Assembly (NCBI GenBank): GCA_017499595.2
Contig: CM039006.1
Span: forward strand, 1,860,001 to 1,924,000
Length of the DNA stretch: 64,000 nucleotides
Reading direction: 5' to 3'
Source of the DNA: Psilocybe cubensis
Taxonomy: Eukaryota
Each line of letters opens with the position of its first letter. The stretch's first letter is position 1. Below are positions 6,965 through 57,380 of this stretch, one piece after another. The position numbers and the translations under genes are program-made. The notes beneath the pieces were generated by a model. It ran no database searches and was not told where the DNA came from. It was given only the letters and a program-made list of their open reading frames with translations.

Positions 6965-7145
6965 TGTTGGAATGATAGTCGGCGAGCGACTTCGTCGCTA
7001 AGTCATTATCTTTCTATTGTAGTTTATCTTATCATATTTTTTCTAGATCATTCTACTACAGGTTCCGTAGCTACTGTAGGTACAGGTGTATAGTTACGTC
7101 GTGAATCGATATCTTTTACCACCACTGCGCATTATACTTACAACA
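6965..7145 (+). repeat. Copia-1 5' LTR (181 bp)
   Basis: TGTTGG...CAACA; direct repeat identical to 27066-27246. Confidence 0.97.
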
Positions 7146-7240: not shown

Positions 7241-9307
7241 ATGGCTGACTCGACAACCGCGGAAGTCAACATCGGCGGATATCGCATTGACACACTGAAG
7301 GCCCACAATTGGATGCCGTGGAAGCGGCGCATGCTAGCAGTACTGGTGGACCTCGGACTGGAGAAATACGTGGACGGCACGTCGCTTCGACCAGGATCAG
7401 CGAAACCGAACGCACCCACGGCGGAAGAAATCGCAGCTCAGACAGCGTGGGATAAGGGAGATGCGAAAGCGCGATGCAGGATTGAACTCGCGTTAAGCGA
7501 TGCGGAGATGGTACACGTCCTGGGAGCGCGCACAGCACGCGAGATGTGGACGCAGTTGTGCACAGTGAAGGAATCCAAGGGACGACTCGGTGTTTTGGCG
7601 ACACGACGAGCACTTTTCCGGGCAACCGCAGAGGAGGGATGCGACATGGCAGAGCATATCGCAAAGCTACGTCAATTCCAGGAGGAGCTGCACATCATGG
7701 GCAGCATTGTTTCGGACGAAGATTTCGTCATGATTTTGCTCACCTCGTTGCCGGAATCTTGGGAGAATTATGCGTCATCCTTTTTGGGCTCGAGCGGGAA
7801 TCGTCCTACGCTCACTTCGCAAGAGCTCGTTGGTGTTCTCCTTGAAGAAGCTCGTCGTCGGAAGGAGCGTGGAGGTGATGGTGCCGGAGGGACTACGCTT
7901 CAAGTTCGTGGAGGTCAAGGGTCGTCGGATGGAAAGGGTAATGGTTCGAGGGATGGCAGCGGCGGGAAGGAGTGCTATAATTGCCACAAGATGGGGCACA
8001 TTTCGAAGGATTGCTGGGCGAAGGGCGGAGGTCGTGAAGGAAAGGGTCCGAGGGGGCGGAAGACGAAGAATAGAGGGCGGACAAATCAGGCTCGGGAGGA
8101 CGTCAACACTACGCTCAACGATGAGGTTGCGTACCACACGTACTCGACGTCGAACTTCTCTCGTTACGACTGGCTTTACGATTCTGCAACCACCAGTTAC
8201 GTTTGTCCCGTCCGTGAAGCCTTCATTGAGTATACGCCACTCGTTAATTCCTCTGTTCGTGGTGTCGGAAAGAGTCCAGCTATCATTGCAGGCCGCGGAA
8301 CAGTCATCCTCAACTTCGATGTCGACGGGCAGACGATTACTCATCGTTTGAAAGACGTTTTACACATCCCTGAAGCTGAAAATGCTTTGATGTCGCTCGG
8401 AAGGTTTGAGAGGGATGGGAGGAGCTCGTCGTTTAAGAATGGGAAGGTTCTTTTGATGGATGCGAAGGATAAGGTTATTGGAAAAGGGTCGAAACGCGGT
8501 CAGATGTATATTCTTCACGCTCGCGCTCAGCTTAATTCAGGGGAACAGGTCAACTACGTCTCGCCAAAACTCACCTGGGATCAATGGCATCGTTGTTTTG
8601 GCCATATCTCAGTGTCGTCGTTGCAGAAACTCGTCCGGAACGATCTCGTCGTTGGTCTTTCCGTGGACGAAACGTCTATTCCATCCCCATCGTGCGAGGC
8701 GTGCATCCAAGCGAAGCAGACGCATAAACCTTTCCCTGGAGAAGCAGAAAATCAATCCACGGTTCCTGGAGAGCGAACCATGAGCGACGTATGGGGTCCT
8801 ATTGGAACACGCTCGGTAAATGGATTTTATTACTACATTACGTTTATGGACGACGCAAAGCGATACAATGGCGTGGTTTTCTTGAAGGACAAGAAGGAGG
8901 CGGCGAAGGCGATTGAGAATCATGGGGAGCGAGTGAAGAGGAGGTTTGGGCAGTATCCGAGGTACATTCGCATGGACAATGGCAAGGAACTCGTGAACGA
9001 GCGGATTAAGAAGTGGGCGGCGGAGAGAGGCATTGAAATCGAGACGACGGCGCCATATTCCCCATCTCAGAACGGCGTCGCAGAGCGCTACAATCGTACG
9101 CTGTTGGAGCTAGCACGTGCGATGATTATTGCGAAGAATTTACCTCTCTTTCTCTGGGACGAAGCGGTCAATTACGCGAATTATTTACGCAACCGCGCGC
9201 CTACTCGAGCACTCGACGACAAGACACCATATGAAGGCTGGCATAACAAGAAACCAGACGTTTCTCACCTTCGGGAGTTCGGATGCGATGTATGGGTGTT
9301 AGACGAG
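7241..9307 (+). CDS. Copia-1 polyprotein, 5' part (gag, CCHC knuckle, protease, GAG-pre-integrase, integrase core)
   Basis: CYNCHKMGHISKDC; WLYDSATT; WHRCFGH; CEAC; RMDNGKE; SQNGVAERYNRTL; FGCDVWV. Broken at 9307 by KDZ-1. Confidence 0.95.
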
Positions 9308-9625
9308 CACATAAGACAGTTTATTTATAACGTACATTACCTAAGATTTAATAATAAGGATATTACGTGAGACACGGTGGATTTACTTCCGCTACCTAAT
9401 TAGGAGATTAGCGTGATGTACGTGTGATTTAGCCTGGCAAATCATAGCGTACATGACGTGCCATTTAGCGCTAAATGGAGCCGCCGGGTGGCCTGCGGGA
9501 TCCGCGCGTCTACCTACACGGAAGAAACACGGGCCGGAAATGAGCCGGACGGGTCCATTTGCATCCCGTGTATTGCAAGCAGACGGATCCGCTTGACCCG
9601 TGTTGTGCTGTCAGACGGACCCATT
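9308..9625 (+). repeat. KDZ-1 left TIR (318 bp)
   Basis: Reverse complement of 24631-24948 with 3 mismatches seen; contains the palindrome CCATTTAGCGCTAAATGG at 9461-9478. Confidence 0.95.
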
Positions 9626-9750
9626 CATCCATCCGCTTCTGTATTCCGACAAATATCCGCCTTGAATCGTACATTGGATGACCGTTAATATATGTAATAA
9701 GGTGTATAGATTATACTGGCAGCAAATTTCTTTCCACATACCCTGATAGT

Positions 9751-11030
9751 ATGGATTATGCCTTTGAGCTAACCCAATCCCTCTCAAACTACATGAAGGC
9801 AAAGATAGCTAGTCGTCTTTGGCATGCAGAACTGCCTAATCAAATCCGGGAAAACTTCAGTGCTGAGACCATGTTTGAGTGCAATCTAGCTGTGGAGGTG
9901 ATTTTGCAGGCATTTGAAAATCAAGGTATGCAATCAATAAGCTTTGAAAATTGAGATTAAATAATGTGTGAATGGCAGAATATACGACGTGGGATGCAGA
10001 AGAATATTTGACCCATCTCAGCGCACGTTGCACGGGTCAGAATTCTGCCGTTGAGGCTCGCCTGAAAGACCAGTTTCCTCCGGTGCATTCCACGTTACAG
10101 TACCAAACCCTGCCCGGAACTGTAATCGATAGTGCAGGCAACATATTGGTGTGGTACCTGCCAGGTATTTTGTCAGAGACAAGGGTGGTGAGTTTTAGAA
10201 ACGGACCGATTAATTCCTATATTATGCGTTCTAAAGAGTAACAGGAGAGTGTGTGGAATTCATTACGGGATATTGAAACAATGATTCACAAGGCGGCACC
10301 TTTGGCCACAAGCTGGAGGGTCAATGACAGTTACTTTCGACATGAGCCAGGTTGGCTTCAACCTGGAAATCTTAACTTTTCCCCGGCATGGTTTCAGCAA
10401 GGCCATGAGGTGAGAAACTTGTTTGCTAAGTATTATACTGCCTCATATTTTCCTCAGACGTCCAACCCGCTTGAGGTCTCCTTGGACTTGTGTAATCCTA
10501 TTGGACAGGAGTTTATACGAGACATGATGACATCTTCGGCTTTGCTGGGAGCCATCTTGAGCATTATACACCCCGAGCAGTACCGGGCGGGAATAAAATT
10601 TCTTCAACGGCTTGCTGCGGAACCGGAGTTCGTCCATAAGGCCGAAATATTGAAGCAAATTCTCACAATATGGAGTTCGCCCTTTGGAGTCATGACCGCC
10701 ATCAGCAACCGAGATACACCGTACCATCGGGATAATGGGTCATGCTACTCATGGTACGATTTTTTGATGCCACTTGGGAAGGGTGAACACGGACGGCTTG
10801 AGCTTCCTGGCCTTGGACTTCGGTACAAGTATGATCCCATGACCCTTGTTGCAATTACTGGCAGGTTGCTTCAACACGGCGCGGTGTGCGAGGGAGATAG
10901 GGCAGTCATAGTCTATTACATGCGTAGGAATGTATTTAAAGAGCTGGGAGTCCAAGAGGCGGGATGGTCTACTACGTACGATCTTTTTGCAAATTTACCG
11001 GCCACCAACACTTTTGATTTTGAAATATGA
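9751..11030 (+). CDS. TET/JBP-like 2-oxoglutarate/Fe(II) dioxygenase (4 exons)
   Basis: Introns 9926-9978, 10188-10244 and 10410-10457. NRDTPYHRD (HxD), LLQHG (H) and GDRAVIVYYMR (R) form the double-stranded beta-helix pattern. KDZ context is typical of fungal TET/JBP genes. Confidence 0.85.
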
Positions 11031-11106
11031 TCAGTTTTTGACTTGGAAGTTGGGTTTGGGGAAGATTTTTTTATATTTCCAAAACAAAACGGTACGAAAG
11101 CTACAG

Positions 11107-11392
11107 AACAACCAGAATTCTCTGTCCCAGGGTGTTTCCGACGCGCCCGCGCTGAGCTCTTCCAAGGTTACCGGAATCATCGGACTCCGCCGTCGTATTA
11201 CCGGCGGAAAAGGCATCATCCGCCTCCTCTTCGATGTCCTGTGCGAGAGGTGGGCAACTAAGATTCCTCATCCCAGGGTGTTTCCGACACGTCCTCGCTA
11301 AGCTCTTCCGAGTTACCGGAAGCATCTGACTCCTCCGTCGTATCACCGGCGGAAGACTCCACATCCGCCTCCTCTTCAAAGTCCTGTGCGAG
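11107..11392. repeat. Degenerate ~145-bp tandem duplication over the end of the unknown KDZ gene
   Basis: The unit starting CTCGCACAGGAC (minus strand) occurs twice; the second unit lies beyond the stop codon. Mirrored at ~43245-43530. Confidence 0.8.
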
Positions 11393-12882
11393 ATGCTCTA
11401 AAAACGTAGCTGGTGTAGAGGATTCAGTGGTATTGGACGTACTATCAATATCATCCTCTTCTCCCGGGAAAACAGGTCTTGACCTTGCGTTAAAAAGGAA
11501 GGCATTGCTGGTGTGTGCATTTGACGGAGGGCTGACGGAACCGGGAGTAGGCAGAGTATCTGTTGGGAGATGAATATTTGCAGTGTTGGAGGGTGGCGAA
11601 TGATACCAGAGTGGATGAAAAGGTAGTTCCTTGACGGCAATAAAAGAATAAAAAATGTCGTTGATGTAAAATGAAGCGACTTTGAGCTTTGAGACCTCGA
11701 AGGACCGGGCTTGAGCCGTTATAGCGCCCCAACTGTCAGGAGAAGGGTGAACGGGATGCTGAAATTTGTATTTGGCTGAAAGCCCCTTGCCGTTAGAGAA
11801 CGGGTGCTCCTTAGAGTCAATCCACATCTTCTCCAATACAGAATATCTGCCCAAGGCGGCCGAAGAAGTAGTCACTGCTTTATGGGCATTTTTCATTTTG
11901 TCCGCCACATTCCGGCGCAGGTGAGCCAACTCCCTCATTACGCCCGTTAGGATAGGCTGACCGCAGCGGGGACAGTAGGGCGGTCTGTGGTCAGAAATTG
12001 CAATTGGGGATGTTTCATCCCGCGTGTTTGCAACACGGGTCGGCGGATTGGGTTTCCCCGTGGGCGGTGAAAACGCGGAGCCGTGCTTTCCCGTCAACGC
12101 GGATCCGTGCTTCCCCGAGGTGGGGACGGATGTCCGTTCAGCCGCCTTTCCCTTGCCCTTGGGATTGTTTTCCTGATTTCTTGGAGGCCCAGAGGTAGAT
12201 GAACTTGCGCCCTCCTTAGCTTCTTTCCTCTGATTATTTAGCCGGAGTACCTCTTGTTGGTATTCAGGCAGAACCACCTGGTGGGAAGGACGCAAATCAG
12301 ATATAATCCACAGCAATAAAAAAACATACCTTGTTCCAAAATTCTCTTGCTTGCGATTCAACGGTAACAAAGGCAACTTGCCACTCATCGCCTTCAGCAA
12401 ATCCGTCCCTCCACCAATATCCCCAGCTCTTGGTCTGATTTAAAATTTCATCATCTTCCCATGCTGACCAGCTTTGATTTAGAGATTCAAATAGAACAGC
12501 TCGATGGTGGGGAGTTCGGTTCAAAACGGCATGTACGCTCTGATTGAGAATTTCTGATATAAAAAATGGAATATCGACTTGGAATCCATTGACATAGCAG
12601 TATCCGAGTACTCTCAGCAGTATAGCCTGACGACCAGTTCTCAATACAAGATATAATCGTTCAAAATTACTGTCTTACCACCTCCAGGTCGAGCAAATAC
12701 ATCCATTTTTGGCGACGCACGGAGGAAACAGAGTCTCCGTTTGCAATGAACAAATGGTATCCGGCACGGATCCGTGCACCACAAACATGGACATGAACTT
12801 TGGCCAGAGCACGTCGCTCATCATAGGTAAGGAGATGATGTTCGTCCTCGACAGGAGGTTTAAAAAGCCGCGGTAAGTGCAT
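11258..12882 (-). CDS. KDZ cargo protein of unknown function (Trp-rich helical N-terminus, CPRC, acidic tail)
   Basis: Three ORF pieces join in frame across GT-AG introns (LLDLE|AILLR, EFWNK|VVLPE); conserved in both copies. Confidence 0.65.
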
Positions 12883-12926
12883 GAATTCAACGAGATGGGA
12901 TACAACAAGAATGTTCAAAGAACTGG

Positions 12927-15900
12927 TTAATCTGTAATTATAAATCTCCACACGGACGGATACTCCGGGTTAATTTGACGGAAGACCTTATCCGCGGCCC
13001 GCCCCAGATCATTCCACATGGCAATCTGCTTTTGAGCATTTGCCCTGTGACCAACTAACCTGTCAGGAACAAAATCATGCCGTGCACGCCATGTCTTTGC
13101 CATATACACATAAAATCTGACAGTCCATTCCATTTCCTTTTTTGTCAAGGCCAGCTCCTCTTGCCATCTATTCCTCTGAGCTCGCGCGCGGAGCCAGTTT
13201 AGCCTAAAGACTAAGAAGCCCTTGAGAAAAAAATTAGAAATACAAATAGCAGTACTCACACTCATTAACGTATAATTGATTATCATTGTCCAGGCCCTGA
13301 CGGGATCTCCAAATCCAACTTAGACGGTCCGAGCTTCCTCCGTGAATGTTCGGATCCGACACGGCATTACTATGCTTGCAATCATGGACTTGCAGAATGG
13401 GATATTGTTTCCGAATATTATCCTCGTCTCGCACGCCAGCAGATAAATAGATCATCTTCTGACGGTTTGTGTTGTAGAGTCGCCGGTGCAATTTCCAGGA
13501 AGCATTCAAAAGCTTGACGCCATCCCAAGCACGAGTCCCCATATAGACGGAGTCGGCGGTCCGAACCTGATATTTATACTGCCAAGAAAGCTGGATCAAG
13601 GCTGACCGGACCGCTTCCAGACAGTCCTCTGCGTGGCCATGTCTTATTTGAAGTTCAAGTTTGCGAAGCCCTTTTAAAATGAGGTTTGTTCCCGCGTCAA
13701 GGCCGTCAAAGAAATCTTGTTTGACGGCGGAGGGAAACGGAAGCGGCTGTCGTTCCGGATCCGCGCGGGTAATGTTGACATTTCCAAGATCAGGATCGTC
13801 GTTGTCACTGACTTCATAGTCAAGTATGGGAGCGATGTCCCCTTGAATATCCTCCAAGACATCTTCGCCCATGAAGGTCATAGCGGATCGACAGAAGGCT
13901 TCAACGCGGGTCCGCATGGAGCGACATTTATTGACCAAGTCAAGTTTCTGCGCGGTGGAAGGATGCTTTCCGAGCTTTCTGACATGGTCCCTGAGCTCCA
14001 ATCTAAAAGCATGTTAAATTCTGTAGGATGCAATTGAAATAATCGTACTGCGCTTGCTCCAGTTTTAAGCCGGATGATATCCATGCTGCCTTTCCAGTAG
14101 CACCATTAGATGTAAGTTCCATATTTGAAAGATGCAATTCAATTTCTTGGCGTCCAGCGGCCGTTTTCACTTTGCTTGCCATTACCTTGCCAACAGCGTC
14201 GGCCACACCTTGTTCTCGGTCCGCTTCTGCTTTTGAAATTTCATCTTCCCAAGTGTTGATGAGCCCGGAATCTTGTTGATCCGTGATACCCCTATAAAAT
14301 CGGTCTGTGATTCCGGACTGTTCCCGTGCCCGTTTGAACTTTGCAGCAATTGTTGCAGCCATATTAATGGTCTTCTTCCAGTTGGAATCCCCCATGTGGT
14401 CGTCCAAAACCTCTGCTCGATGGGCAGTGGTAGCGGAACGTGTACTCCGGGATGTGTCATTTAACACGGACCACAACGGCTCCAGGATTTCTCCGTCAAT
14501 GATTCCCACACCCGGGACATAGGTGGATGCGTAGTTGTAAAGACATTCCGTCTTGTGCCCGTGGACGTGAAATAAACCAATTGCAAAAATCATTTTAACA
14601 GAAGGTGGCCAATGCATTTTTGTGGACTCTGAGAGACGCCTTGCCAAGTTAACGCAATATTGACAGTTTATATCGTAGATTTCCAAATGTTTTGTGATTC
14701 CCTGTGTGTTGGTAGTTTCCCTGGCCTGAGTCAAAGACCAATCCATGTGCATCTGCTTTTCGCCTTTGTCAAAATCGACAACGCTGGATGGACAGAAGCA
14801 TCCGTGCCTAGCGCAAGCGTGTGCCCCAATTCCACGTACTCTCTTACCCGGGCTGACTCTGTTTTCAGCTTTCTGGGCGTGGTAGTTATGACATGTTTGT
14901 TCCTGATATTTTTTTACACGGAGGATAAGCCATCCGCCGTGGAAGATTTTTTTGACACGGAAGGGAAGCATCCGCCGTGGAAGATTGTGACACGGAACGT
15001 AAGCATCCGCCGTGAAAGATAAATCATGGTAGATAACGCACCCGTTTATAACGTGGAGCAAGAGAAATTGCTTCCTTGATGTGCTCCTTGTATGGGCCCG
15101 GAGCAGTCATGTATCCTTCTCCAACGCTCAACCAAACATCGTCTCCCTCGTTTTTCTGATTGAGGTGATCTGCTTTGAAATTACCATCTGCAACATAACT
15201 ACGTATGTACAGATTGCTATTTGCTGTTAATTGCAGTCACCCTTGAAGAATAACTAAAACTTGCCTGTCAGCATCATCAATCCAGGTATCAGGTAGGTTT
15301 ATTCCAGGCTGTGGACAGGCGGGGCAGAATAAGGCCAACTTCCCTCTCCTATCTTCAACTTTGGGATGATCCTCGGTCCGCGTCATTTGTGGTGCAGGCG
15401 GACCATCTAATCCGCCGTGTCCCAGAGACGGGTCCGTTGACGTTCCGACTTCTTGAGACGGACTATCAGATCCGCCGTCAATTGGATCAGATACATTAAT
15501 ACCCATCCTCTCTGGTGATGAATCATGGCAATGATGATAGTAAGGGACCACCGCTTCTCTTGTATGCCCTTCTCCGTATTGTCGTCTCAGGACAAGGTCC
15601 CTGTATTCTCTACTAAGCCTTCTCAATTCACGATAGCGGTTCAGCACCTTTTTTGGAAACGCTGGCGAAGTCAGTCTTCGCAACTTTTGGTAATACTGAT
15701 AAGCCGACGTTTTGCACTCGAGGTTGTCCATCCGAAAGTCCTCAAGGACCTCAACTGTGAACACAGTTTGAACGTTTTCAAAGCTGGCTGCAAATAATCC
15801 CATCTCCAGATACTGTAAATCGATAGACGGAAGGCGGACGGACCGGCATGTGCATGTTCGCACGGGCAGATAATGGACTCCGGAGGTGTGCACAATTGCC

Positions 15901-16849
15901 TTGAAAGGAATTCCATTGTTGTCTGCTGCCTTTGGACGAGGTTGGTCCAGATAGGTTGTATCGACTTCCTCGAATAGATCATCGTCTTCATCGTCTCCAT
16001 CGTCCAGCTCAACCAAATGGGGTACCTCCGGGTCCGCCAGAAGCTGAGCCGTAAAGGATTCTTGGTCATTGCTCGCAGGAAGCGGATCCAGGTCCAATCC
16101 GTGTTCATCCTCAAAGATGGGCGAATTGTTTCCGCCGTGCCCATGACTCCCGGATGAATTGTTTCCGCCGTCGCATCCTAGATGGCTCGGATCCGTGGGA
16201 TAAGGACACCGCTTCCCATTATGACCCAAATACAACTTGACACCCACTTCCCACAGAGCTCCCGGACGGAAATATAGACCCGTCCACTTCTCAACGCGGT
16301 GGAAAGGTGTAAATTGATGGTTTCTTCGCAGGCATTCAGAACACAAAATTCTAGAGCCAAAGCATTGGCAACATCTCCACACTCCAGACATTCCTTGACA
16401 TTGCTGACACCGTCCATTCAGATCCGGATCCGGGGCTTCTCCTCCAATCATTGTTCCAAGATACACCTCTCGTTTCGGGAGCCATTCCCTCAGGTAATCA
16501 TTTTGAGACTGGATAGGTAAAGTCATCCTGATCATTCTACTGAAAACATGTTAAAACATACCTTTCCTCCCGTTCTGTCGTCATCTAGCTGTCTCAGGTT
16601 ATCAAGTACCTGCTGATCAGTTAGATCTCCCGGATAATGAGGTATTTCTTCTTCCAGAATGTTGTGTTCATGGTTTTGGAAAGAGTAAGTCGTTGTTTGA
16701 GGGAGGTTTGTTGATGATGATTCTGCAGGAAGTTTGTGGATCCTCGGCCGCCCTCTCTTTCGTTTCTTGGCCCCACTAGACCAGGAGGCCTCCCGAACAT
16801 TGGGAAACTCCTCATCCGATCCCCTATCAGGTACTTTCTTGAAGCCCAT
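12927..16849 (-). CDS. CxC2-domain KDZ transposase (multi-exon)
   Basis: CxC2-like region IVHTSGVH...CTC...QYLEMGLF...YYQKLRRLT; CPACPQPGIN; catalytic-type motifs DGNFK, YDINCQY, FHVHGH..C and DGEILEPLWS; C-terminal WLRARAQRNRWQEE. Confidence 0.93.
14917..15020. repeat. Three ~36-bp tandem repeats with a CATCCGCCGTG core inside a transposase intron (14903-15041)
   Basis: Seen directly; mirrored at ~39617-39720. Confidence 0.85.
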
Positions 16850-17728
16850 GGATGTTGGAAACAAAGAGTCTGACAGCCTGTGAGCGCAGATCTAAATGTA
16901 GTATAACATGTTTATTTCTGTAGATAAATTTCCCTCAATTATGCCGTTTTAAAGAGGAGAAAAATAGCTTTCATATGATCTATCTTGCAGCATATTTGGA
17001 TGAGTGAGTGAAATGTTATGAACAAAACTTAATCCAGAGATGCACAAAATGGACGTGATCCCATCATAAATGTACAATATGATGCAGAACGACCCTTTCA
17101 GAACCACACTTTGGAGTGTTTTTGAAATATCTTTTCACTGGCTGGCCCCTCATTCCTCCGGCGTATATCATATGAAAGATATTTTTAATAGCTACCGAAT
17201 GACATTTTTTGTAGAATGTGAATCCTCGTATTTAAGGAGATATTCTCAATATACTAGAAAATGTGTCAAAATGAGCTCACTGGGATCATTATATTTTTTG
17301 AAAAAAATTATGCATTTGAATACCTCTCATGGTCTCTGAGATGACTGCCGTTTTGGGTTTCACAAGTTTTGGGTGAGAAGACGTGAATTTGAATTTTGTG
17401 TTTCTGTATCTTTACAGCCATCTAACAAGAATTTAAAACCTTGTAAGATTATCTTTATATAAAGCGCTAAATGTTTACAAAATTTCATGTTTATTGATTG
17501 AGTGCAGAGGGAACTATTGCAAAATCATGAGGTCAATGTATGTGACAGCGACCAGCATGCTTTGATCATCGTGGCCGACGATGAAGCGGGATTACCTGAT
17601 TGGGAAAAATATGACATCACATCATTCATTTAGTATGATCGGAAGCTTATTTTATCTCCGTATGACGTGAGATTTGACTAGATCACACAGATACTCATCG
17701 ATAAGCTACTTGTTACATCGCTGCAATT

Positions 17729-20039
17729 ATGCCCACCAATGCATCCCCCGACGCGGATCCGCTTCCTTCCACTGCAAATGCCACAACCCACAACGGACCC
17801 AGAAGCGGACAGACGGCGGAGGGTGACTTTCCGCCGGAAGAATCAAATATATGGACCACAAAGGAAATGCGCGTGTTGAAAAAGCATGTACAGCCCTACA
17901 AAGATACATCAAAGTCATCCAAAGCAGACTACATACAGAACACTGTCATACCTGAGCTGCAAGCTACATGGGATCACAGATACTCTAGACGTGCTAGGAA
18001 GGAAGATAAGCAACTACACAAAGAATGGAAGGTGAAGAAGCATGTGAGCTCGTTGTTTCTTTGAAAATTTTGTTACACACATAAACCATCACAATAGCGA
18101 ATTTTTAATTGGTTTAGAAACCATGCGTCAAATCGAATTGGTGTAAAATTGGAAGGATTGAACTCCCGTATAACCTTTCAGACGGTATTCCGTGAGGAGA
18201 AGTCGGCAGAGATTGACTCCGAGGTTGCGCTTCTATCAGGGAATGCTGCTCGTGGAAGTAAAGATTGGATGAAGTTTTATCAACAAGGACGTAAGCAGGT
18301 TGAGGCCAGATTGACTCAGGAGGAGCGGGACAGGTTCATGGAGATCCTCGAGGAATGGAATAAGAAAGGTGTTTCAAAATCAATGAAGGCAAAGTGAGTC
18401 GGTGGAACTTGTTTCCGCCGTCAATCTGACATCTGCAGGACTGCTGCCAGGCAAGGCAGAAAAATACTTCGACAAATGGAGAAACTTAAGTGGCAGAGAA
18501 TGGGTATGAGGTCCATTACCTTTGAGGGGCATTATGATATTGAGGGTAAAATCAAATACTCAATGTAAGTGTTAAACACGGCATGAACAAGTTCCGCCGT
18601 GAATGCTTACGGCGGAAACTTTATCCGCCGTAGGGTGTTTACGGCGGATAAAGTTTCCGCCGTAAGCATTCACGGCGGAATAATTTGGCCCGTATTAATG
18701 TTGACTGATGGGCATTGAAGGACCCAGACAAGCGATCTAGCACTCGACGATGTCAGAATTCCTTCCTTTGGGCAACTCTTTCTATCCGAGTTGGCCGCTT
18801 TTCGCAGAGCGTTTGTTCAATACCTCGTCCACATTTCAGAAATAGAGAAGGGTGTGGCCAATCCAGCACTGCCAGATGCATCGTTTCATGAAAAATCCCT
18901 CAAGTTTAGCAGCAATGGATTTCCAATAGTACCTAGTCCTATCTATGGCTCAACTGGGAGAGAAGTCGCTTATGCGCAAAAGTCAATTATTAGAATTTAC
19001 ATGAACAAGGTTTATGGTGTGTAATTTGTCTATGTCCTCAACAAACTTGCTAACTATGTATACAGCTTTAGCCAAGGATAGGCCTGGTTCAAGTGTTCCT
19101 TGGGATGCTCTTGAAAGGCGTTCTGCAGAAATGATTGATCCAGAGTATTGGCCAAGTTCAATCCCCGTGACGGATCCGAGCCGGCTCCGCCTGGAGTCAA
19201 CTTCTGCAATTCTCAAGCTATGGAGGGACCGTCAAGCGCAAGGAGACATCCCCTTTAAATTCTCAAAGGTTTTTGGAAATGGCTATGACATTATGGAACC
19301 TCTCTATCCGTCCAACTTGTTTGACGGCCTAGAAGCCCACCCGATACCTCCACCTCCTGCAGCCATAACCAAACGTCGGCTGAGGCAAAAAGCTATACGA
19401 CTTCAAACCCAATCTTCAAGCGACTCTGAATCATCCAATCTGTCAGAGTTTGATAATGGACGGGGTAGTCCGGCATCCGCGATGCCACGCACTACTGCCA
19501 GATTTGAAGTCACGCCAGAGACGGATGAGACTCCTACCGACGCACCTTCAAGATCTAGCGAGCCACCCTCTCTACCAAGTAGATCCAGCCCAACAATTGT
19601 CAATCCATCATCCAGCCCAACTCCAGAGGTTGAGGAGGCGCCTCCCAAGCCAGCTAGAAAGATTATGCCAAGAAAAAGAACAAAGCCATATGTCGGAACG
19701 GCGGAAATGGACGGACCCGATGAAGAGAGTTCTGTACCCCCCCCAGTTAAGCCAAAACCAACTAGAAGGATTCAACCTAGGAAAAGAACAAAGCCCTACT
19801 CAGATCCACTTAACACAGTGGAAGAAGATGGAGTCCAAACAGGAACAACCCAAGACACGGATAATACACGGGCCGGCAGGGACGTGACTTGTGATGCCTT
19901 TGTGGAGACAGTAACAAGTCCAGATACGGATGAAACACGGGCCCGCAGGAATTTGACTTCGGATGCCTTAGCACTTCAGGAAGCAAGTCTGCTTGCTGTA
20001 GCAGGTAAAAGACAAAGAAAAAAAACTTTGAAAGCCTAG
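17729..20039 (+). CDS. KDZ cargo protein with homeodomain-like and HMG-box-like regions and a disordered basic tail (multi-exon)
   Basis: Spliced KKH|RIFNWFRNH (WFxN helix-3-like); FQTVFREEK...YQQGRKQVEARLTQEERDRFMEILEEWN (HMG-like); RKRTKPY twice. Divergent from the transposase gene. Confidence 0.65.
18592..18680. repeat. Perfect hairpin (41-bp arms, 7-nt loop) inside intron 18565-18720
   Basis: TTCCGCCGTGAATGCTTACGGCGGAAACTTTATCCGCCGTA, loop GGGTGTT, then the exact reverse complement. Confidence 0.95.
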
Positions 20040-20317
20040 CTGTTGAAGTAGATTCATGATACCTATTGAATGTGATGCTTTTTATTCTTATCTTGATGTT
20101 TCTCAAACATGTTTTCACACAAAATCAAAACAGAAAGCGGGGTTCATTAAAAATCATCAAGTGCTACTTTTTGGGAGAGGTATAAAACAGATGAGCACAT
20201 GAGAGTAAAAACTATATACAGTCCAAATGATGAAAAAATTGTATAGGGATGTGAGCAATGTAATATATGACAGGCAAAAAAGGAGACCAAAAAAAAGTTA
20301 CAAAGAATTGAAATACA

Positions 20318-22888
20318 CTACTTTTTTTGGGCCTTGGATTTTTTGGGCGAGCGCGATGCTTCAGCCAGAGTCGTTTCCGCCTTTCGCTTTCGTCCAGCCC
20401 TTGTCTTTGTGGCTATGTTCGACGCGGGCAGCGTGGACGCCACGATCTCAACATCCTCCTCCTCCACAATTTCAACCTCGTCGCTGTCCGAGGGATCAGA
20501 CAACTCCGATGAGTGTCCATTCCCGGATGGCCCAGCCTTGGAGGATGGCTTAGCCTTTGACAATGGCTTAGCCTTTGAGGATGGGCCAGCCTTTGACGAT
20601 GGCGCGGCCTTTGACGATGGTGCACCCTTTGACAACGGTGCGGCCTTTGACGTCAAACTTCGAGGACGTGGAGCTGGGAGAGGGGGTGGTGGAGACAGGG
20701 AAAGGATGGGCGGTACCGGTGGGAGCGAGGGTCGGCCAGCTGGGGGGGGCAAAGGCGCTTCCGGAGTCGAACCGGGCAAGAATAGCGCTGTTGGTGGCGC
20801 AGACACGGCAGGGAGGACGGGTGCGGGTGGAGGTGGGGGAGGGGAAGGGAGGACAGGTGCTGGCGGTGGTGGAGGAGGGGAAGGGAGAATGGGTGCTGCT
20901 GGAGGTGGAGGTGGGGAAGGGAGGGGTGCTGGCGGTGGTGGTGCGCTTGGGGATTGTGGCACAGAGGTGGGTTCACGGGTCCGCGACGGACCCGATTCTT
21001 GTTCGACCTCCGTCTTGGAGGGTCCTGCTGCCTGTTTGGGGGCGGGATTCCTTCGTTCATCCTGCTCCAGCAAATCGTCGACCACATCTCGGACGTGGTT
21101 GATCCTCTTGGTGATGTCGTTGAACATCGTGACGGAAAGCGAGGTGCTTCCTGCCACTTGTTCTTTGGCCATGGTCTATTCGGCCTTCACCTCTTGGATG
21201 CCGTCCTCGATGCTCTTCATCCTGTTCTCCACCGCCAAGTTCGTCTCGGCAAACGTCGCAATCCGTGCATTAATCGCCGTCATGGACGCGGATAACCCGT
21301 CCAGCCGTTCCATGATTCTGCCTTGGCGCTCAAAGAGCTGCACAAGCAGTTCTCCCACATCCTCGGGGAACGACCCTTCCCCGGCCTTCCCCTTCGCCGG
21401 AACATCTTCTCCCTCCTCCAACTTCAACGCCTCCCCATAGCTTCCCAGTGGCGTCGTCAAAAATTGACCCACGAAGGTGTTGCGCCCCGGGTAGAAGCTG
21501 CAGTGGATCTTGCGAGACTTGCAAGACTCGCAAGATTGGTGCTTCACGGGGACGAGAGGCTCAGTGCCTGTCTCCCCCTTGACATAGCATGGCACCTTGA
21601 ATTTGATGCATGCCGTGCACCTTTCCACCATGTCCACCATCCCCTCTGGCACCTGGCGCACTTTCTGGGATCTCGACCGCGCCTTCCTGATGGGGGGGAC
21701 ATCGTCCTCGGTGTCCTTCTTTACGGAACGCGTGCGCATCTTCCGGGTGGGGGTGGCAGTGGGGGTGGTAGGCGGTGCCCCTTTGTTATCGCCTTCGTCG
21801 TCCTCGTCAACGTCCGCGTCCGCGTCTTCGTCCGTGTGGCTTCCTATGATCGCCTTGCTCCTGAATTTCCCCTGCTTGGACTTCGCCAATCTTTCCAGCT
21901 TCTCCCTGTACGCTGGGTGACCGGGCATGTTGGAGGCGGTAATGTGGGGAATAATTTCCCCCTTCTTTGTCCGTGGGCCCCTGTAATCCGCTGGAGCCAA
22001 CTGAATGGACTCCACGGGGTCCGCCGCTTTCCGTTTGCCCTTGTCTTTGTGGGCGTCTGTCACGGGTCCGTCTTCCACCGGGGGTTCGACTGCCTTGCCC
22101 TTGCCCTTCTCGGCCCGTCTCTTCTCCGTCTCCTCCTTGTTCCTCTCCTCGTCTGTCTCCTGCTCCTGCTCCTGCTCCTGCTCCCTCTTCCTCCTCTCCT
22201 CCGCCTTCTGCCTCTCCTGCTCCCTGGTCCTCCTCTCCTGCTCCCTCTTCCTCCTCTCATCCTTTCTCCTCTCCTCCACCTTCTGCTTCTCTTCCTCCCT
22301 CTTCCTCCTCTCCTCCTCCCTCTGCCTCTCCTCCTCCTCCTCCCTCTGCCTCTCCTCTTCCTCCTCCCTCTTCTTCTTCTCCTCCCTCTTCCTCCTCACC
22401 TCCCTCTTCCTCCTCTCCTCCACCCTCTGCCTCTCCTCCTCCTCTTGCTCCTCCTTCTCCCTCCTCTTTTCTTGCTCCTCCTCCTCCCTCCTCTTCCTCT
22501 GTGCCTCCTGGCCTTCCTGGTAGGCCTTGAAGTTGGCGACTTGATGTTTGAGCGTCGCCCAGTCGACCTCAAACCTGTAGATGTTCTCGCCGTCCTTGCC
22601 CTGGATGACTTTGTACGAGTAGACAACGGGGCTCGCAACATAGTCAATGAGCCGGAAGCGGGCGGCGTCCCTGACATGCTCCTGACACAATGGAACCTAT
22701 TGGAATTTTTTTTTTTTTGTTGAGCAAGTCATGATCTTATAAAATTGAGAACTTACCAAGTCCCTGTAAAGCTGCTCCAACTCAGCGTTGAACGCGCTTT
22801 CACCGTTGCGGTAGCACTCGGTAAACTTTTTTTCCCAGTCAGCGAGGCGTTGGGCGAAGGTGGCGGTGGTGGAAGATGAAGCGGCCAT
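20318..22888 (-). pseudogene. Zn(II)2Cys6 / coiled-coil / Pro-rich KDZ cargo gene carrying a nonsense mutation
   Basis: CTAC-x6-C-x18-CESC-x6-C; TGG>TAG at 21176-21178 relative to the intact copy at 31749-34319. Confidence 0.85.
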
Positions 22889-23194
22889 TGAAAAAAGCGT
22901 GTTTTTATGGGGGAAGACGCGTTAAAGTGGTGAGGCACGGTAGAACGTGAGGGTGGTGATCGTGGTTGGAGTTAGTCTAAAAAAAGTCTAAAAAAAAGCG
23001 GTCCCGCAAAACAAAACCATACACAAACATGTACAATCTGAGTCATGTGATTTCTTCACCAGATCCAGTTTGTGCAAAAGTTGCTAAGTTCGATACACGG
23101 GTGAATCTATTTCCGTGTCATGGAGAATCCTCGGATAGTATTGTATTCCGTGAGATATATAAACAAGCCCACCCAGTTGCACTTTCTGGACTGT

Positions 23195-24552
23195 ATGTCC
23201 TCCTACAACTTTATTCCCACCTCTAGCAAAAATTCCCCCATTGACTACACCAGTCTCAACAATCTTACCAGGCTTCTTGAAAAACTGAAGGAACCTCCTC
23301 CCGTAAAACCTATAAAATGTAAGACTAATGGCATTAATTCAAGTAAATTTTAATTGATTTCTGAGCATCAGCAATGTCTTCAAATATTAGCAACTCTAAG
23401 GAAAGCAAACGCACAGCAAGGACGGATGACCTGGCTCCGCCGCCAATGCCAGTAATTCCAGCTAACCTGGCTCCGCCGCCAATGCCAGTAATTCCAGCTA
23501 ACCTGGCTCCACCCCCTATGCCTGTCATTCCAGCTAACCTGGCTCCACCCCCTATGCCTGTCATTCCAGCTAACCTGGCTCCACCCCCTATGCCTGTCAT
23601 TCCAGCTAACCTGGCTCCACCCCCTATGCCTGTCATTCCAGCTAACCTGGCTCCACCCCCTATGCCTGTCATTCCAGCTAACCTGGCTCCACCCCCTATG
23701 CCTGTCATTCCAGCTAACCTGGCTCCACCCCCTATGCCTGTCATTCCAGCTAACCTGGCTCCACCCCCTATGCCAGTCATCCGGAACGACACGGCTCCGC
23801 CGCCAATGCCTGTCATCCGGAACGACACGGCTCCGCCGCCAATGCCTGTCATCCGGAACGACACGGCTCCGCCGCCAATGCCAATCATTCCAGATAACCT
23901 AGCTCCTCCCCCTATGCCTGTCATTCCACCTACCCTGGCTCCTCCCCCTATGCCTGTTATTCCAGATACCCTGGATCCTCCACCTATGCCTGTCATCCGG
24001 GATGATGTGGCTCCGCCGTTGATGGCAGCACATGTTTCATACACGTCTGTCGTCGACAAAATCATTATGGACTCTCGTCCAGCTATTTCCTCTGAGAGGA
24101 AGCAAGGTCGCTATTCTCCACCCCCTGAAGCATGCCACCTGCTCCTTCAAAACCCTTATTTTCGAACCTACGGCAGGTTTGATCCCATGGGCGGCTACCC
24201 CGGTTCGCCTCCCACCCAGTCTGACATTGAGTTCGAGGATGTGACAGATCAGACGGCATATTTTAACCCTCCTTTTCTATATGTATGCACTCAGATATTA
24301 CCAAGCACTAGATACTGACAACTATTTTAGAATTATACCGAGCAGCAGCTACGGGCAACATACGACCAAATAATCGACAGTTCCGTCGGCGACAATAGTT
24401 ATGACAGCAAGGTCACAACGTTTAAGAACCTCCGCCTGCATCAGCTGCAGTCAGAAATTCTGACTTATAATGCGCTGGAGGAAATTGACGCTGGGCTGGC
24501 AGGGATTGAATCGAGTTTGGAAAAGCATTTGTATACCGGTAGAGATGAATAA
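23195..24552 (+). CDS. KDZ cargo proline-repeat protein (LAPPPMPVIPAN)n with a helical C-terminus
   Basis: TATA-like element at ~23155; introns 23319-23371 and 24283-24330; stop TAA at 24550-24552. The first exon is inferred. Confidence 0.7.
23431..24006 (+). repeat. Coding minisatellite, 16 x 36 bp
   Basis: 576 bp equals 16 units of 12 codons. Confidence 0.95.
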
Positions 24553-24630
24553 ATTATTTTTGGAGCCCTTGTGCTCATTGATTCGCAATACCTCTCAAAT
24601 ATCCCTCCCTCTCTGGGAAGATACGGGTCA

Positions 24631-24948
24631 AATGGGTCCGTCTGACAGCACAACACGGGTCAAGCGGATCCGTCTGCTTGCAATACACGGGATGCAAATG
24701 GACCCGTCCGGCTCATTTCCGGCCCGTGTTTCTTCCGTGTAGGTAGACGCGCGGATCCCGCAGGCCACCCGGCGGCTCCATTTAGCGCTAAATGGCACGT
24801 CATGTACGCTATGATTTGCCAGGCTAAATCACACGTACATCACGCTAATCTCCTAATTAGGTAGCGGGAGTAAATCCACCGTATGTCACGTAATATCCTT
24901 ATTATTAAATCTTAGGTAATGTACGTTATAAATAAACTGTCTTATGTG
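24631..24948 (-). repeat. KDZ-1 right TIR
   Basis: Ends ...GTCTTATGTG, followed by TSD AGACGAG. Confidence 0.95.
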
Positions 24949-24955
24949 AGACGAG

Positions 24956-27065: not shown

Positions 27066-27246
27066 TGTTGGAATGATAGTCGGCGAGCGACTTCGTCGCT
27101 AAGTCATTATCTTTCTATTGTAGTTTATCTTATCATATTTTTTCTAGATCATTCTACTACAGGTTCCGTAGCTACTGTAGGTACAGGTGTATAGTTACGT
27201 CGTGAATCGATATCTTTTACCACCACTGCGCATTATACTTACAACA
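27066..27246 (+). repeat. Copia-1 3' LTR
   Basis: Identical to 6965-7145. Confidence 0.97.
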
Positions 27247-28219: not shown

Positions 28220-28833
28220 CTGTAGGAGATGTCTATCTCTTCATAATGCATGGAAATCATATCATGACACTAACCATTTGAGATAAAGTGATAAATGCTC
28301 AGGTGGTGAATATCTTGCGTGGTATCCTGTCCTTTAAATACTGTCTCTCGCTCTTATCCTAGCAGCCTTTATGGTCTTTCTATATGTGGATTTGAGTGAT
28401 TTTATTCAAACATATGCGTAAAACAGCCTATACAAGATGTTTCAGATTACGAATAGTGTGCATGTGTACTACAATTACTCTAGTTTCCCTGAATGAACAC
28501 ACCAAGAAGAGCTGTCACCGCTGAAGCATACTATTGTATCATATCTAAAAAAGGTAGCAGTGGGGCTTGTGAAGAGTGCGTGGTTCGGAAATCTTGCTAC
28601 TCCTCCTGAATCTCTTCAAGAAGTTTAAATATAGCAACCTGTCAACTGGATCTTTACGGTAGTCAAAATCACTTAATATGCAGAATTGTGTCGGTTCCAA
28701 ACTCTTCTTTACCGTGTTATATTTCTGAACGCGGATTTGGGGCTATAAATACTGGTAGAAAGTGCTTGTATAAATTTCCGCTGTGAATGGATATTATAGA
28801 GTGTTTGTAAGCTCCATCGGCAAAAGTGACCAA

Positions 28834-28866
28834 GTCCCCAAATGCCTTAGTAAGGCATTTGGGGAC
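28834..28866. repeat. Palindrome with 16-bp arms and a 1-nt spacer
   Basis: GTCCCCAAATGCCTTA-G-TAAGGCATTTGGGGAC. Confidence 0.9.
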
Positions 28867-29103
28867 GCCCAAAGGCCCCAAGGCGCAAATGGCCTTTTAT
28901 ATCGACTAAGTAGAGACTCGCAATTTTGAAAGGCTACAAATCCTTCACTAGAATGAATGTTTTATCAAAATCTAAATTTAATGAAATCATTTCGGTAAAA
29001 TTTGGGAGACCCAAAAACATTTGGACAACATTTGAGTTGCGTTTGAGAGACCCAAAAAAGATTTGAGGTTCACACAATGCTACAGCTTGTTTATTCTTAT
29101 TTA

Positions 29104-29360: not shown

Positions 29361-29616
29361 CGCCTAGGCGGATTTTTCAGAAACCGAGCATAGGCACACC
29401 TCTAGACTTCTTAACGACCCAATTTTTTCATATCGCTATGTCTGGAGAGTCAATGGAGATTACGGATCCAGTGGATTCCCGGATATATGTGCCCCTTGAT
29501 TTTCCCACTTCTGATTCTCAGCCTTCTATACATTCATTGCATTCAAACTTTTTGCGTTTAACCCGTTCTTCCAATCAGGATTCTCTTTTGCAGTATTATA
29601 GATTACCCATTTCTTC

Positions 29617-29934
29617 CACATAAGACAGTTTATTTATAACGTACATTACCTAAGATTTAATAATAAGGATATTACGTGACATACGGTGGATTTACTCCCG
29701 CTACCTAATTAGGAGATTAGCGTGATGTACGTGTGATTTAGCCTGGCAAATCATAGCGTACATGACGTGCCATTTAGCGCTAAATGGAGCCGCCGGGTGG
29801 CCTGCGGGATCCGCGCGTCTACCTACACGGAAGAAACACGGGCCGGAAATGAGCCGGACGGGTCCATTTGCATCCCGTGTATTGCAAGCAGACGGATCCG
29901 CTTGACCCGTGTTGTGCTGTCAGACGGACCCATT
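29617..29934 (+). repeat. KDZ-2 left TIR
   Basis: Reverse complement of 24631-24948. Confidence 0.95.
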
Positions 29935-30012
29935 TGACCCGTATCTTCCCAGAGAGGGAGGGATATTTGAGAGGTATTGCGAATCAATGAGCACAAGGGC
30001 TCCAAAAATAAT

Positions 30013-31442
30013 TTATTCATCTCTACCGGTATACAAATGCTTTTCCAAACTCGATTCAATCCCTGCCAGCCCAGCGTCAATTTCCTCCAGCGCATTATAA
30101 GTCAGAATTTCTGACTGCAGCTGATGCAGGCGGAGGTTCTTAAACGTTGTGACCTTGCTGTCATAACTATTGTCGCCGACGGAACTGTCGATTATTTGGT
30201 CGTATGTTGCCCGTAGCTGCTGCTCGGTATAATTCTAAAATAGTTGTCAGTATCTAGTGCTTGGTAATATCTGAGTGCATACATATAGAAAAGGAGGGTT
30301 AAAATATGCCGTCTGATCTGTCACATCCTCGAACTCAATGTCAGACTGGGTGGGAGGCGAACCGGGGTAGCCGCCCATGGGATCAAACCTGCCGTAGGTT
30401 CGAAAATAAGGGTTTTGAAGGAGCAGGTGGCATGCTTCAGGGGGTGGAGAATAGCGACCTTGCTTCCTCTCAGAGGAAATAGCTGGACGAGAGTCCATAA
30501 TGATTTTGTCGACGACAGACGTGTATGAAACATGTGCTGCCATCAACGGCGGAGCCACATCATCCCGGATGACAGGCATAGGTGGAGGATCCAGGGTATC
30601 TGGAATAACAGGCATAGGGGGAGGAGCCAGGGTAGGTGGAATGACAGGCATAGGGGGAGGAGCTAGGTTATCTGGAATGATTGGCATTGGCGGCGGAGCC
30701 GTGTCGTTCCGGATGACAGGCATTGGCGGCGGAGCCGTGTCGTTCCGGATGACAGGCATTGGCGGCGGAGCCGTGTCGTTCCGGATGACAGGCATTGGCG
30801 GCGGAGCCGTGTCGTTCCGGATGACTGGCATAGGGGGTGGAGCCAGGTTAGCTGGAATGACAGGCATAGGGGGTGGAGCCAGGTTAGCTGGAATGACAGG
30901 CATAGGGGGTGGAGCCAGGTTAGCTGGAATGACAGGCATAGGGGGTGGAGCCAGGTTAGCTGGAATTACTGGCATTGGCGGCGGAGCCAGGTTAGCTGGA
31001 ATGACAGGCATAGGGGGTGGAGCCAGGTTAGCTGGAATTACTGGCATTGGCGGCGGAGCCAGGTCTTTCCGGATGACTGGCATAGGGGGCGGAGCCAGGT
31101 TAGATGAAATGACTGGCATAGGGGGAGGAGCCAGGTTATCTGGAATAACAGGCATAGGGGGTGGAGCCAGGTTATCTGGAATGACTGGCATTGGCGGCGG
31201 AGCCAGGTCATCCGTCCTTGCTGTGCGTTTGCTTTCCTTAGAGTTGCTAATATTTGAAGACATTGCTGATGCTCAGAAATCAATTAAAATTTACTTGAAT
31301 TAATGCCATTAGTCTTACATTTTATAGGTTTTACGGGAGGAGGTTCCTTCAGTTTTTCAAGAAGCCTGGTAAGATTGTTGAGACTGGTGTAGTCAATGGG
31401 GGAATTTTTGCTAGAGGTGGGAATAAAGTTGTAGGAGGACAT
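30013..31442 (-). CDS. KDZ-2 proline-repeat protein
   Basis: Mirror of 23195-24552, with 18 repeat units. Confidence 0.7.
30559..31206 (-). repeat. Coding minisatellite, 18 x 36 bp
   Basis: 648 bp; includes PDN, SSN and RKD variant units. Confidence 0.95.
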
Positions 31443-31748
31443 ACAGTCCAGAAAGTGCAACTGGGTGGGCTTGTTTATATATCTCACGGAATACAATACT
31501 ATCCGAGGATTCTCCATGACACGGAAATAGATTCACCCGTGTATCGAACTTAGCAACTTTTGCACAAACTGGATCTGGTGAAGAAATCACATGACTCAGA
31601 TTGTACATGTTTGTGTATGGTTTTGTTTTGCGGGACCGCTTTTTTTTAGACTTTTTTTAGACTAACTCCAACCACGATCACCACCCTCACGTTCTACCGT
31701 GCCTCACCACTTTAACGCGTCTTCCCCCATAAAAACACGCTTTTTTCA

Positions 31749-34319: not shown

Positions 34320-34597
34320 TGTATTTCAATTCTTTGTAACTTTTTTTTGGTCTCCTTTTTTGCCTGTCATATATTACATTGCTCACATCCCTATACAATT
34401 TTTTCATCATTTGGACTGTATATAGTTTTTACTCTCATGTGCTCATCTGTTTTATACCTCTCCCAAAAAGTAGCACTTGATGATTTTTAATGAACCCCGC
34501 TTTCTGTTTTGATTTTGTGTGAAAACATGTTTGAGAAACATCAAGATAAGAATAAAAAGCATCACATTCAATAGGTATCATGAATCTACTTCAACAG

Positions 34598-41710: not shown

Positions 41711-41754
41711 CCAGTTCTTTGAACATTCTTGTTGTATCCCATCTCGTTGAATTC

Positions 41755-43379: not shown

Positions 43380-43606
43380 TTGCCCACCTCTCGCACAGGA
43401 CATCGAAGAGGAGGCGGATGATGCCTTTTCCGCCGGTAATACGACGGCGGAGTCCGATGATTCCGGTAACCTTGGAAGAGCTCAGCGCGGGCGCGTCGGA
43501 AACACCCTGGGACAGAGAATTCTGGTTGTTCTGTAGCTTTCGTACCGTTTTGTTTTGGAAATATAAAAAAATCTTCCCCAAACCCAACTTCCAAGTCAAA
43601 AACTGA

Positions 43607-44886: not shown

Positions 44887-45011
44887 ACTATCAGGGTATG
44901 TGGAAAGAAATTTGCTGCCAGTATAATCTATACACCTTATTACATATATTAACGGTCATCCAATGTACGATTCAAGGCGGATATTTGTCGGAATACAGAA
45001 GCGGATGGATG

Positions 45012-49067: not shown

Positions 49068-49069
49068 TC

Positions 49070-57378: not shown

Positions 57379-57380
57379 GA

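Follow-up and report, generated by a model that had tools for sequence, protein, structure and literature searches.

Transposons that carry a TET gene are thought to erase the methylation mark of their hosts, and we know of no direct test of this role so far. In the main text of Kojima 2025 (PMC12730594), where an anti-silencing role is proposed for the TET of such transposons, TET-carrying families of the Kyakuja lineage are described with 7-bp target-site duplications (TSDs) and 5′-CA..TG-3′ termini, together with two named Kyakuja families from Laccaria that have no inverted repeats. The same text reports AG-type TET from Kyakuja as well as from certain Zisupton elements, and 8-bp TSDs for Dileera (Zisupton-1_PGr) and Zisupton. 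Here, a stretch of 64,000 nucleotides from the mushroom Psilocybe cubensis (GenBank assembly GCA_017499595.2, contig CM039006.1, positions 1,860,001 to 1,924,000 of the forward strand), hereafter the window, is found to hold two copies of a 15.6-kb element, which is very probably an autonomous cut-and-paste transposon equipped with an AG-type TET/JBP dioxygenase; within the KDZ superfamily, it most likely belongs to the Kyakuja lineage.

Other elements of the superfamily offer further terms of comparison. For the Cryptococcus elements KDZ1-3, which belong to the Dileera clade, the excerpts of Huang 2024 (PMC11343200) and of PMC12810828 give lengths of 9-11 kb, a CxC1 module, inverted repeats of 139-241 bp, TSDs of 8 bp (4-8 bp for KDZ2 and KDZ3), no TET gene and a mobility that was proven experimentally, whilst an excerpt of Hiltunen 2021 reports that motifs in the inverted repeats of Marasmius KDZ elements were characterised. 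As for Psilocybe, the name has 0 occurrences in the main text of Kojima 2025, whose Table S1 may list it, and no paper pairing Psilocybe with Kyakuja or with 'TET JBP' was found in the literature searched. The original prediction, made from the letters of the window, had described a fully delimited transposon with six genes; the observation itself was confirmed, and its interpretation is partly supported.

Ends, target sites and insertions of the two copies

The features that delimit the two copies, and the retrotransposon that hosts the first of them, are as follows (positions are those of the window):

9308–24948: copy 1, complete DNA transposon of 15,641 bp, with 5′ start CACATAAGACAG and 3′ end CTGTCTTATGTG
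9301–9307: left TSD of copy 1, AGACGAG, 7 bp
24949–24955: right TSD of copy 1, AGACGAG, 7 bp
9308–9625, plus strand: left terminal inverted repeat (TIR) of copy 1, 318 bp, beginning with CAC
24631–24948, minus strand: right TIR of copy 1, 318 bp, terminating in GTG
29617–45329, minus strand: copy 2, inverted, 15,713 bp (29610–45336 with its TSDs)
29610–29616 and 45330–45336: TSDs of copy 2, TTTCTTC, 7 bp on each side
6965–27246, plus strand: Copia retrotransposon hosting copy 1, with Pfam gag, integrase and RVT_2 domains
6965–7145 and 27066–27246: long terminal repeats (LTRs) of this Copia, 181 bp each, 100% identical

These coordinates bear out the exact CAC...GTG ends, the 318-bp TIRs and the two 7-bp TSDs that had been predicted, and so does the terminal 34-mer, which occurs four times within the window, exclusively at the four element ends, against 0.00 expected from shuffles. 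The TIRs of copy 1 are 99% complementary over their 318 nt, with 3 mismatches at positions 64, 66 and 81, and CGTACAT-like repeats can be read in their outer part and GACGGRYCC-like repeats in their inner part. Defined ends flanked by a TSD, a trait of the KDZ superfamily, are present in both copies (2/2) and are joined by an empty site, and the TSD implies a target cut staggered by 7 bp. A palindrome, ATTTAGCGCTAAAT, was considered as a shared promoter site and dropped; it is confined to the four inverted repeats. Both TSDs are purine-rich when read in the element's own orientation (AGACGAG and GAAGAAA), and the two copies lie in opposite orientation at a distance of 4.7 kb, features that give a hint, with n = 2, of a target preference or of local hopping.

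Deletion in silico of copy 1 together with one TSD yields an intact Copia pol open reading frame (ORF) of 1,395 aa, starting at 7223, whose SH3_retrovirus domain is interrupted by the insertion. The restoration of the interrupted Copia frame, which had also been predicted, was in this way reproduced. Since the Copia LTRs are 100% identical, this retrotransposon is young, and the insertion of copy 1 younger still.

A search of public sequencing runs with a single stretch of 10 kb from the element gave 14 rows with the whole or part of it (9 of them with at least half of its words), and none of the public runs listed was an RNA data set containing the stretch. Copy 2 with 1 kb of its flanks was compared with four runs at 88% likeness. 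In one of these runs, X15, 26 raw DNA reads with 20 start points link position 29609 directly to 45330, omitting 15,720 bases, which is exactly the length of copy 2 (15,713) plus one 7-bp TSD. This is the empty site in another strain that the original prediction had proposed to look for. All X15 reads in the flanks beside it carry variants (8 listed sites, 29416-29593), which indicates that the empty site is an allele that has diverged or else a closely related paralogue; the sequence before insertion is shown in both cases. The left junction of copy 2 is itself crossed, with zero mismatches, by a contig of run X2 (record 17, 540 nt).

Several features of the neighbourhood of copy 2 were noted. 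The copy lies in a short low-copy stretch near high-copy repeats (positions 45463 and 28815-29058); read depth climbs to about 1,000-1,400 to the right of 45463, where hundreds of reads break. Further along, an 812-nt inverted repeat, 100% complementary, is found at 48269-49080 and 57368-58179, on either side of a minus-strand region, 50757-57345, with gag, protease, RT and integrase of the Gypsy type. The LTRs of a single element would be direct repeats, so that this inverted pair probably derives from two elements or from a rearrangement.

Copy number, sequence decay and recent activity

Read depth in X15 reaches about 500-620 within the element (directions summed) versus 26-39 at the low-copy flank, whereas in X2 the contigs of the element have depths of 160-200 versus 12.6 for the junction contig. 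Together with the annotated paralogues, these values suggest roughly 15 copies per genome, a rough figure because reads down to 88% likeness were counted. Accordingly abundant are the reads that leave the element: 499 X15 reads pass 45329 into unlike flanks with a consensus agreement of 0.35, a low value that is expected with many insertion sites. Depth in X15 is fairly even over the gene regions, and lower in the Glu/Arg/Lys-rich and Pro-rich parts of gene 5. At least 16 JR316 locus tags correspond to the 90% cluster of gene 4, among the matches listed (15 of 22 members), and 12 to the clusters of gene 5. Tags of genes 4 and 5 are numerically adjacent on the same contig in six pairs, on six different contigs, and one of these loci also contains gene 2, two tags off. 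Taking the adjacency of tags as a proxy for physical adjacency, these data support a gene order that stays fixed across many copies. Most members of this multicopy family hold the whole gene set.

Alignment of copies 1 and 2 with MAFFT revealed 31 substitutions and two 36-bp indels. Both indels and 19 of the 31 substitutions fall inside a 36-bp tandem array, leaving 12 differences in about 14.8 kb, all of them transitions, at sites that span 12755-22469. Nine of these 12 are changes from CpG to TpG or CpA, with the CpG lost seven times in copy 1 and twice in copy 2, and the observed/expected ratio of CpG is 0.81 in the element versus 1.36 in the host Copia. A similar bias is seen between X15 and the window (C>T 160, G>A 189, A>G 89 and T>C 76, with 20-35 in each transversion class).

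Larger changes were also detected. A deletion of 994 bp (43986 to 44981), which takes the promoter and most of the TET gene, is present in 27 X15 reads, and an internal deletion of 4,820 bp (40066 to 44887) in one X11 contig with a depth of 51. Smaller deletions of 63, 42 and 39 bp occur in X15 within repeat arrays, and the length of the 36-bp array is variable. Besides, runs X10, X11 and X12, filed under other organism labels, contain short contigs of low depth with 98-99% identity to all gene regions.

Recent activity of the element is supported by the 12 substitutions between its copies, by the empty site in another strain and by the identity of the Copia LTRs. The claim that the whole set moves as one recently active unit has consequently held, on the strength of these substitutions, the empty site, the even depth and the adjacency of genes 4 and 5 at six loci.

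Gene content of the element

The genes of copy 1, and a hairpin within one of them, are the following:

9751–11030, plus strand: gene 1, predicted TET/JBP dioxygenase, 3 exons, with introns at about 9926–9978 and 10188–10244
11258–12882, minus strand: gene 2, 492 aa, no family, 3 exons (tblastn exon map)
12927–16849, minus strand: gene 3, KDZ transposase, at least 6 exons (exon map from the annotated model P0185)
17729–20039, plus strand: gene 4 (P0008), 668 aa, 5 exons
18591–18681, plus strand: perfect hairpin in intron 3 of gene 4, with a 43-bp stem, a 91-nt palindrome containing six ACGGCGGA
20318–22888, minus strand: gene 5, about 836 aa, 2 exons
23374–24318, plus strand: gene 6, putative Pro-repeat ORF

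The order is thus TET(+), an unknown gene(-), transposase(-), gene 4(+), gene 5(-) and the Pro-repeat ORF(+), with two divergent pairs, transposase/gene 4 and gene 5/gene 6. Order, strands and divergent pairs agree with those of the original prediction; its count of six genes is uncertain, as the annotated model P0185 (1,559 aa, derived from a copy with a partial deletion) fuses gene 2 onto the transposase by splicing, so that the element may have five or six genes, and no annotated protein was found for gene 6. The ATG of gene 2 lies 45 bp past the stop of the transposase on the same strand, and alternative splicing of a single transcription unit is possible for the two.

The two genes that define the element were identified as had been anticipated. 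The transposase contains the KDZ domain (PF18758, E 7.6e-38, 130.8 bits versus a cut-off of 26.6), which covers profile positions 49-217 of 217 in a single exon, and a CxC2 zinc-chelating module (PF18803, E 1.4e-21, 77.1 bits versus a cut-off of 27), preceded by a basic, AT-hook-like N-terminus; its ORF pieces are equal in length in copies 1 and 2. Gene 1, whose start codon lies 126 bp inside of the left TIR, matches Pfam Tet_JBP (E 3.1e-19) and the TET of Coprinopsis cinerea, CcTet (7vpn_A, E 7.8e-27), and its N-terminal exon aligns to CcTet residues 79-146 (E 8.9e-5). In the alignment with CcTet the iron ligands are kept, both the HxD motif (HRD) and the distal His, with Asp at the equivalent of Asp337 and Ser at the equivalent of Gly331, and both states, Asp337 and Gly/Ser331, lie within the range given for Kyakuja TETs in the main text of Kojima 2025 (PMC12730594). 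Judging from these alignments, gene 1 is an AG-type (CcTET-like) TET/JBP dioxygenase.

Gene 4 is the most widespread of the additional genes. In a full scan with HMMER, 280 representative homologues were obtained at E<=0.001, with 46 at <=1e-10 and 11 at <=1e-30. Ten of them were looked up, namely three P. cubensis paralogues and seven hypothetical proteins; the homologues from outside P. cubensis come from Flammula, Agrocybe, Galerina, Crepidotus, Gymnopilus and Hebeloma, and by homology gene 4 is a member of a large uncharacterised family of Agaricales. An AlphaFold2 model built on the alignment of 46 sequences has 340 residues with a predicted local distance difference test (pLDDT) score of at least 90, in a core of residues 40-440, followed by a C-terminus predicted to be disordered, Ser/Pro-rich and basic. 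Foldseek searches of this model against the PDB gave 0 matches at E<=0.001, the top one being the NRF1 DNA-binding domain (E 0.26), while GTF2I domains appeared with probabilities of 0.35-0.69 and template modelling (TM) scores of 0.42-0.58, normalised to the target.

The original prediction had labelled this protein as homeodomain/HMG. The homeodomain part did not stand: no homeobox was found in P0008 itself by Pfam at E<=10, the top 50 PDB matches of the model include no homeodomain, and the family profile reaches the HNF1 homeodomain with a weak E of 0.24. The HMG part is weakly supported at the level of the family. No HMG match was obtained for P0008 itself with Pfam, nor among those top 50 PDB matches, and HMG_box_2 was found in 5/46 family members at E<=1 (best 2e-4) and HMG_box in 2/46; P0037 alone reaches the HMG_box_2 cut-off, at exactly 22.4 bits, through a segment equivalent to residues 150-199, approximately, of P0008. 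As for GTF2I, the family profile matches PDB GTF2I repeats with E values of 0.0037, 0.0074 and 0.042 and a convincing alignment of the motif, and Pfam GTF2I is found in 9/46 members at E<=1, the best at 0.0057 and none at the 27-bit cut-off. On gene 4 these weak signals map to about 135-200 (HMG-box-like) and 330-400 (GTF2I-like). Gene 4 is a probable DNA-binding accessory protein, each of whose modules is sub-threshold in P0008 itself.

A related feature is the octamer ACGGCGGA, which occurs 40 times in the window versus 1.55 expected, 19 times in each copy and twice elsewhere. Ten of the 19 are intronic, three in the transposase intron 14903-15037 (array at 14933-15013), one in intron 2 of gene 4 and six in intron 3. 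The inner part of each inverted repeat is taken up by related, ACGG-rich motifs. The six copies of intron 3 form the perfect hairpin listed above, with an RNA fold of -96 kcal/mol (z -12.7) and an equivalent in copy 2 at about 35956-36046. About a quarter of the X15 reads show 63-bp deletions at this hairpin, which indicates that its length differs between copies.

The remaining genes are more obscure. Gene 2 ends in an acidic 145-bp tandem duplication; its sole match was P0010, with 99% identity, in a length-limited word search that gave P. cubensis copies only, and no match was found in Pfam or PDB, the PDB sequence matches being of low complexity or due to chance (E>=0.019). Gene 5 encodes a Glu/Arg/Lys-rich coil, a six-cysteine motif and a Pro-rich tail. 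The motif, C-x2-C-x6-C-x17-C-x2-C-x6-C, keeps its six Cys in 3/3 paralogues. Zn2Cys6 domains have, in the PROSITE pattern, a middle loop of 5-12 residues, and the loop of gene 5, with 17, is longer. Pfam Zn_clus scored 11.6 and 11.5 bits versus a cut-off of 21, with 14/39 profile positions aligned, and the earlier label of gene 5 as Zn2Cys6 finds no support in these scores. No relatives of gene 5 beyond P. cubensis were found in a word search crowded by low-complexity words, an Atlas search with the cysteine region retrieved only hypothetical clusters of Basidiomycota at 0.81-0.83, under the counting level, and the PDB sequence search gave low-complexity or chance matches only (E>=0.019). In copy 1 this gene has a TAG nonsense codon at 21176-21178, where copy 2 has TGG and an open exon of 792 aa; the change is one of the three non-CpG differences between the copies. 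Protein matches, among them P0002 (JR316_0010027), which agrees at 100% with the truncated form of gene 5 from copy 1, put the window in P. cubensis. Lastly, gene 6 is built on a Pro-rich repeat unit of 12 aa, APPPMPVIPANL-like, encoded by the 36-bp array (23429-23996), with 15.8 units in copy 1 versus 18.5 in copy 2; it has no Pfam match, and the exact single-exon ORFs of either copy are absent from the protein collection searched.

Alternative readings, mechanism and relation to known systems

Near-identical copies separated by 4.7 kb could be taken for a segmental duplication or an assembly artefact. The flanks and 7-bp TSDs differ between the copies, however, the Copia ORF is restored on removal of copy 1, the empty site is present in independent reads, an X2 contig crosses a junction, and hundreds of reads exit the element end into many different flanks; such a reading is refuted by these observations, and its probability is practically nil. 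More weight has to be given to the idea that genes 2, 4, 5 and 6 are captured host genes or fragments, passengers with no role in transposition, so that the element would depend on nothing but its transposase and perhaps TET. The lack of relatives of genes 2 and 5 beyond P. cubensis in word-based searches, the nonsense codon in gene 5 of copy 1, the bulk of gene 6 being a variable 36-bp array, and the presence of ORFs with no known domains also in the Cryptococcus KDZ elements, as given in the excerpt of PMC11343200, all speak in its favour. Nevertheless, the fairly even depth along the whole element in some 15 copies, the adjacency of genes 4 and 5 at six other loci, and the 280 representative homologues, confident core fold and DNA-binding-type signals of gene 4, as would be expected of a maintained accessory protein, make this reading possible rather than likely. 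Quite improbable, in turn, is the placement of the element in the Dileera or Zisupton lineage of KDZ. Long inverted repeats are known from Cryptococcus KDZ1-3 (139-241 bp) and from Zisupton, and the two named Laccaria Kyakuja families of the Kojima 2025 main text have none; but the TSD is 7 bp rather than 8 at both insertions, the module is CxC2, where Cryptococcus elements of the Dileera clade have CxC1 and Zisupton has CxC4 plus SWIM, and the TET is CcTET-like, of the AG type that this text knows from Kyakuja and some Zisupton. Zisupton, with its 8-bp TSD, was the wrong comparator in the original prediction.

Some observations weigh against an autonomous, TET-protected Kyakuja element, which remains the preferred reading. 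The assignment to Kyakuja, held here as the most likely one, is drawn from TSD, termini and type of TET, and the 318-bp inverted repeats set the element apart from the two Laccaria families. Expression and splicing of all genes are taken from gene predictions. The stop codon in gene 5 of copy 1 indicates that some genes are dispensable in cis, and some copies are deletion derivatives, as seen in the 994-bp and 4,820-bp deletions. Finally, a CpG decay of the methylation type is found in the copies despite the TET gene, which means that TET, if acting, gives the element incomplete protection. Such decay may reflect past methylation or another form of C-to-T decay, and it fits an arms race better than full protection.

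The most plausible pathway for an autonomous Kyakuja-type element would start with the binding of the CxC2+KDZ transposase to the repeated motifs of the TIRs and the excision of the element at its CAC/GTG ends, followed by reinsertion through target cuts staggered by 7 bp. Expression of TET would start from sequences in the left inverted repeat or immediately internal to it, and the enzyme would oxidise 5-methylcytosine on the DNA of the element, countering a silencing based on methylation. Of all the genes, gene 4 would be the strongest candidate for an accessory factor that binds DNA, given the HMG-box-like and GTF2I-like signals of its family. A bolder proposal, which we regard as unlikely, is that gene 4 represents a conserved accessory DNA-binding family of Agaricales Kyakuja-type transposons, with HMG-box-like and GTF2I-like modules that recognise the ACGGCGGA/ACGG-rich arrays, and that the intron hairpin is a regulatory or small-RNA device. 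If this were true, the element, with its TET, would be a self-contained epigenetic control cassette and not a transposase plus passengers. In any case, a young, multicopy and strain-polymorphic family with exactly defined ends may be well suited for testing the role of TET in the erasure of silencing, as TET-intact and TET-deleted copies stand side by side in one cultivable mushroom and a signature of CpG decay is present.

Compared with the Kyakuja families in the main text of Kojima 2025 (PMC12730594), the element shares the combination of a KDZ-type transposase and an AG-type TET/JBP in an Agaricales host, the 7-bp TSD (2/2 copies) and the 5′-CA..TG-3′ ends, here CAC...GTG, along with a CcTET-like TET with Asp337 and Ser331. 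The original prediction had supposed that both the TSD and several cargo genes may be undescribed; the 7-bp TSDs of Kojima 2025 mean that the length of the TSD is not new, while the part on the cargo stands in the literature searched, and three or four further genes found here go unmentioned in that main text. The extra genes, above all the gene 4 family, and the intronic motif arrays remain undescribed in the literature searched, and this is the first description of genes other than transposase and TET in such an element; it also points out a large uncharacterised protein family of Agaricales, that of gene 4, which may be transposon-borne. With the Cryptococcus KDZ1-3, as presented in the excerpts of PMC11343200 and PMC12810828, the element shares a large size, long inverted repeats, a CxC+KDZ transposase and extra domainless ORFs, and it differs from them in its CxC2 module, 7-bp TSD, TET gene and length of 15.6 kb, so that the 8-bp TSD and CxC1 of Dileera are replaced here by 7 bp and CxC2. 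With the Zisupton elements of fish and fungi, as far as they are covered in these sources, it has in common the KDZ (Pfam) transposase superfamily and the inverted repeats, and it lacks their 8-bp TSD, CxC4 and SWIM, a scan of the transposase ORFs at E<=0.01 having given CxC2 as the sole module of this kind. Among solved structures, CcTET of Coprinopsis cinerea (PDB 7vpn, 8jkk) comes closest to gene 1; it has the same HxD...H ligands and Asp337, and differs, in a comparison by sequence, in having Gly331 where gene 1 has Ser. More distant analogies exist in other superfamilies. En/Spm is a two-protein system, TnpA/TnpD. In PIF/Harbinger the transposase has a Myb/SANT partner (part of Kojima 2025, PMC12730594). 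The likeness of the present element to both would lie in the pairing of a transposase with another protein that probably binds DNA, and in repeated subterminal motifs, a likeness of logic only. Among all these systems, the element stands as a new, cleanly delimited and evidently active family within the TET-carrying Kyakuja kind that had been described before, set apart by comparison with the main-text descriptions of the published families.

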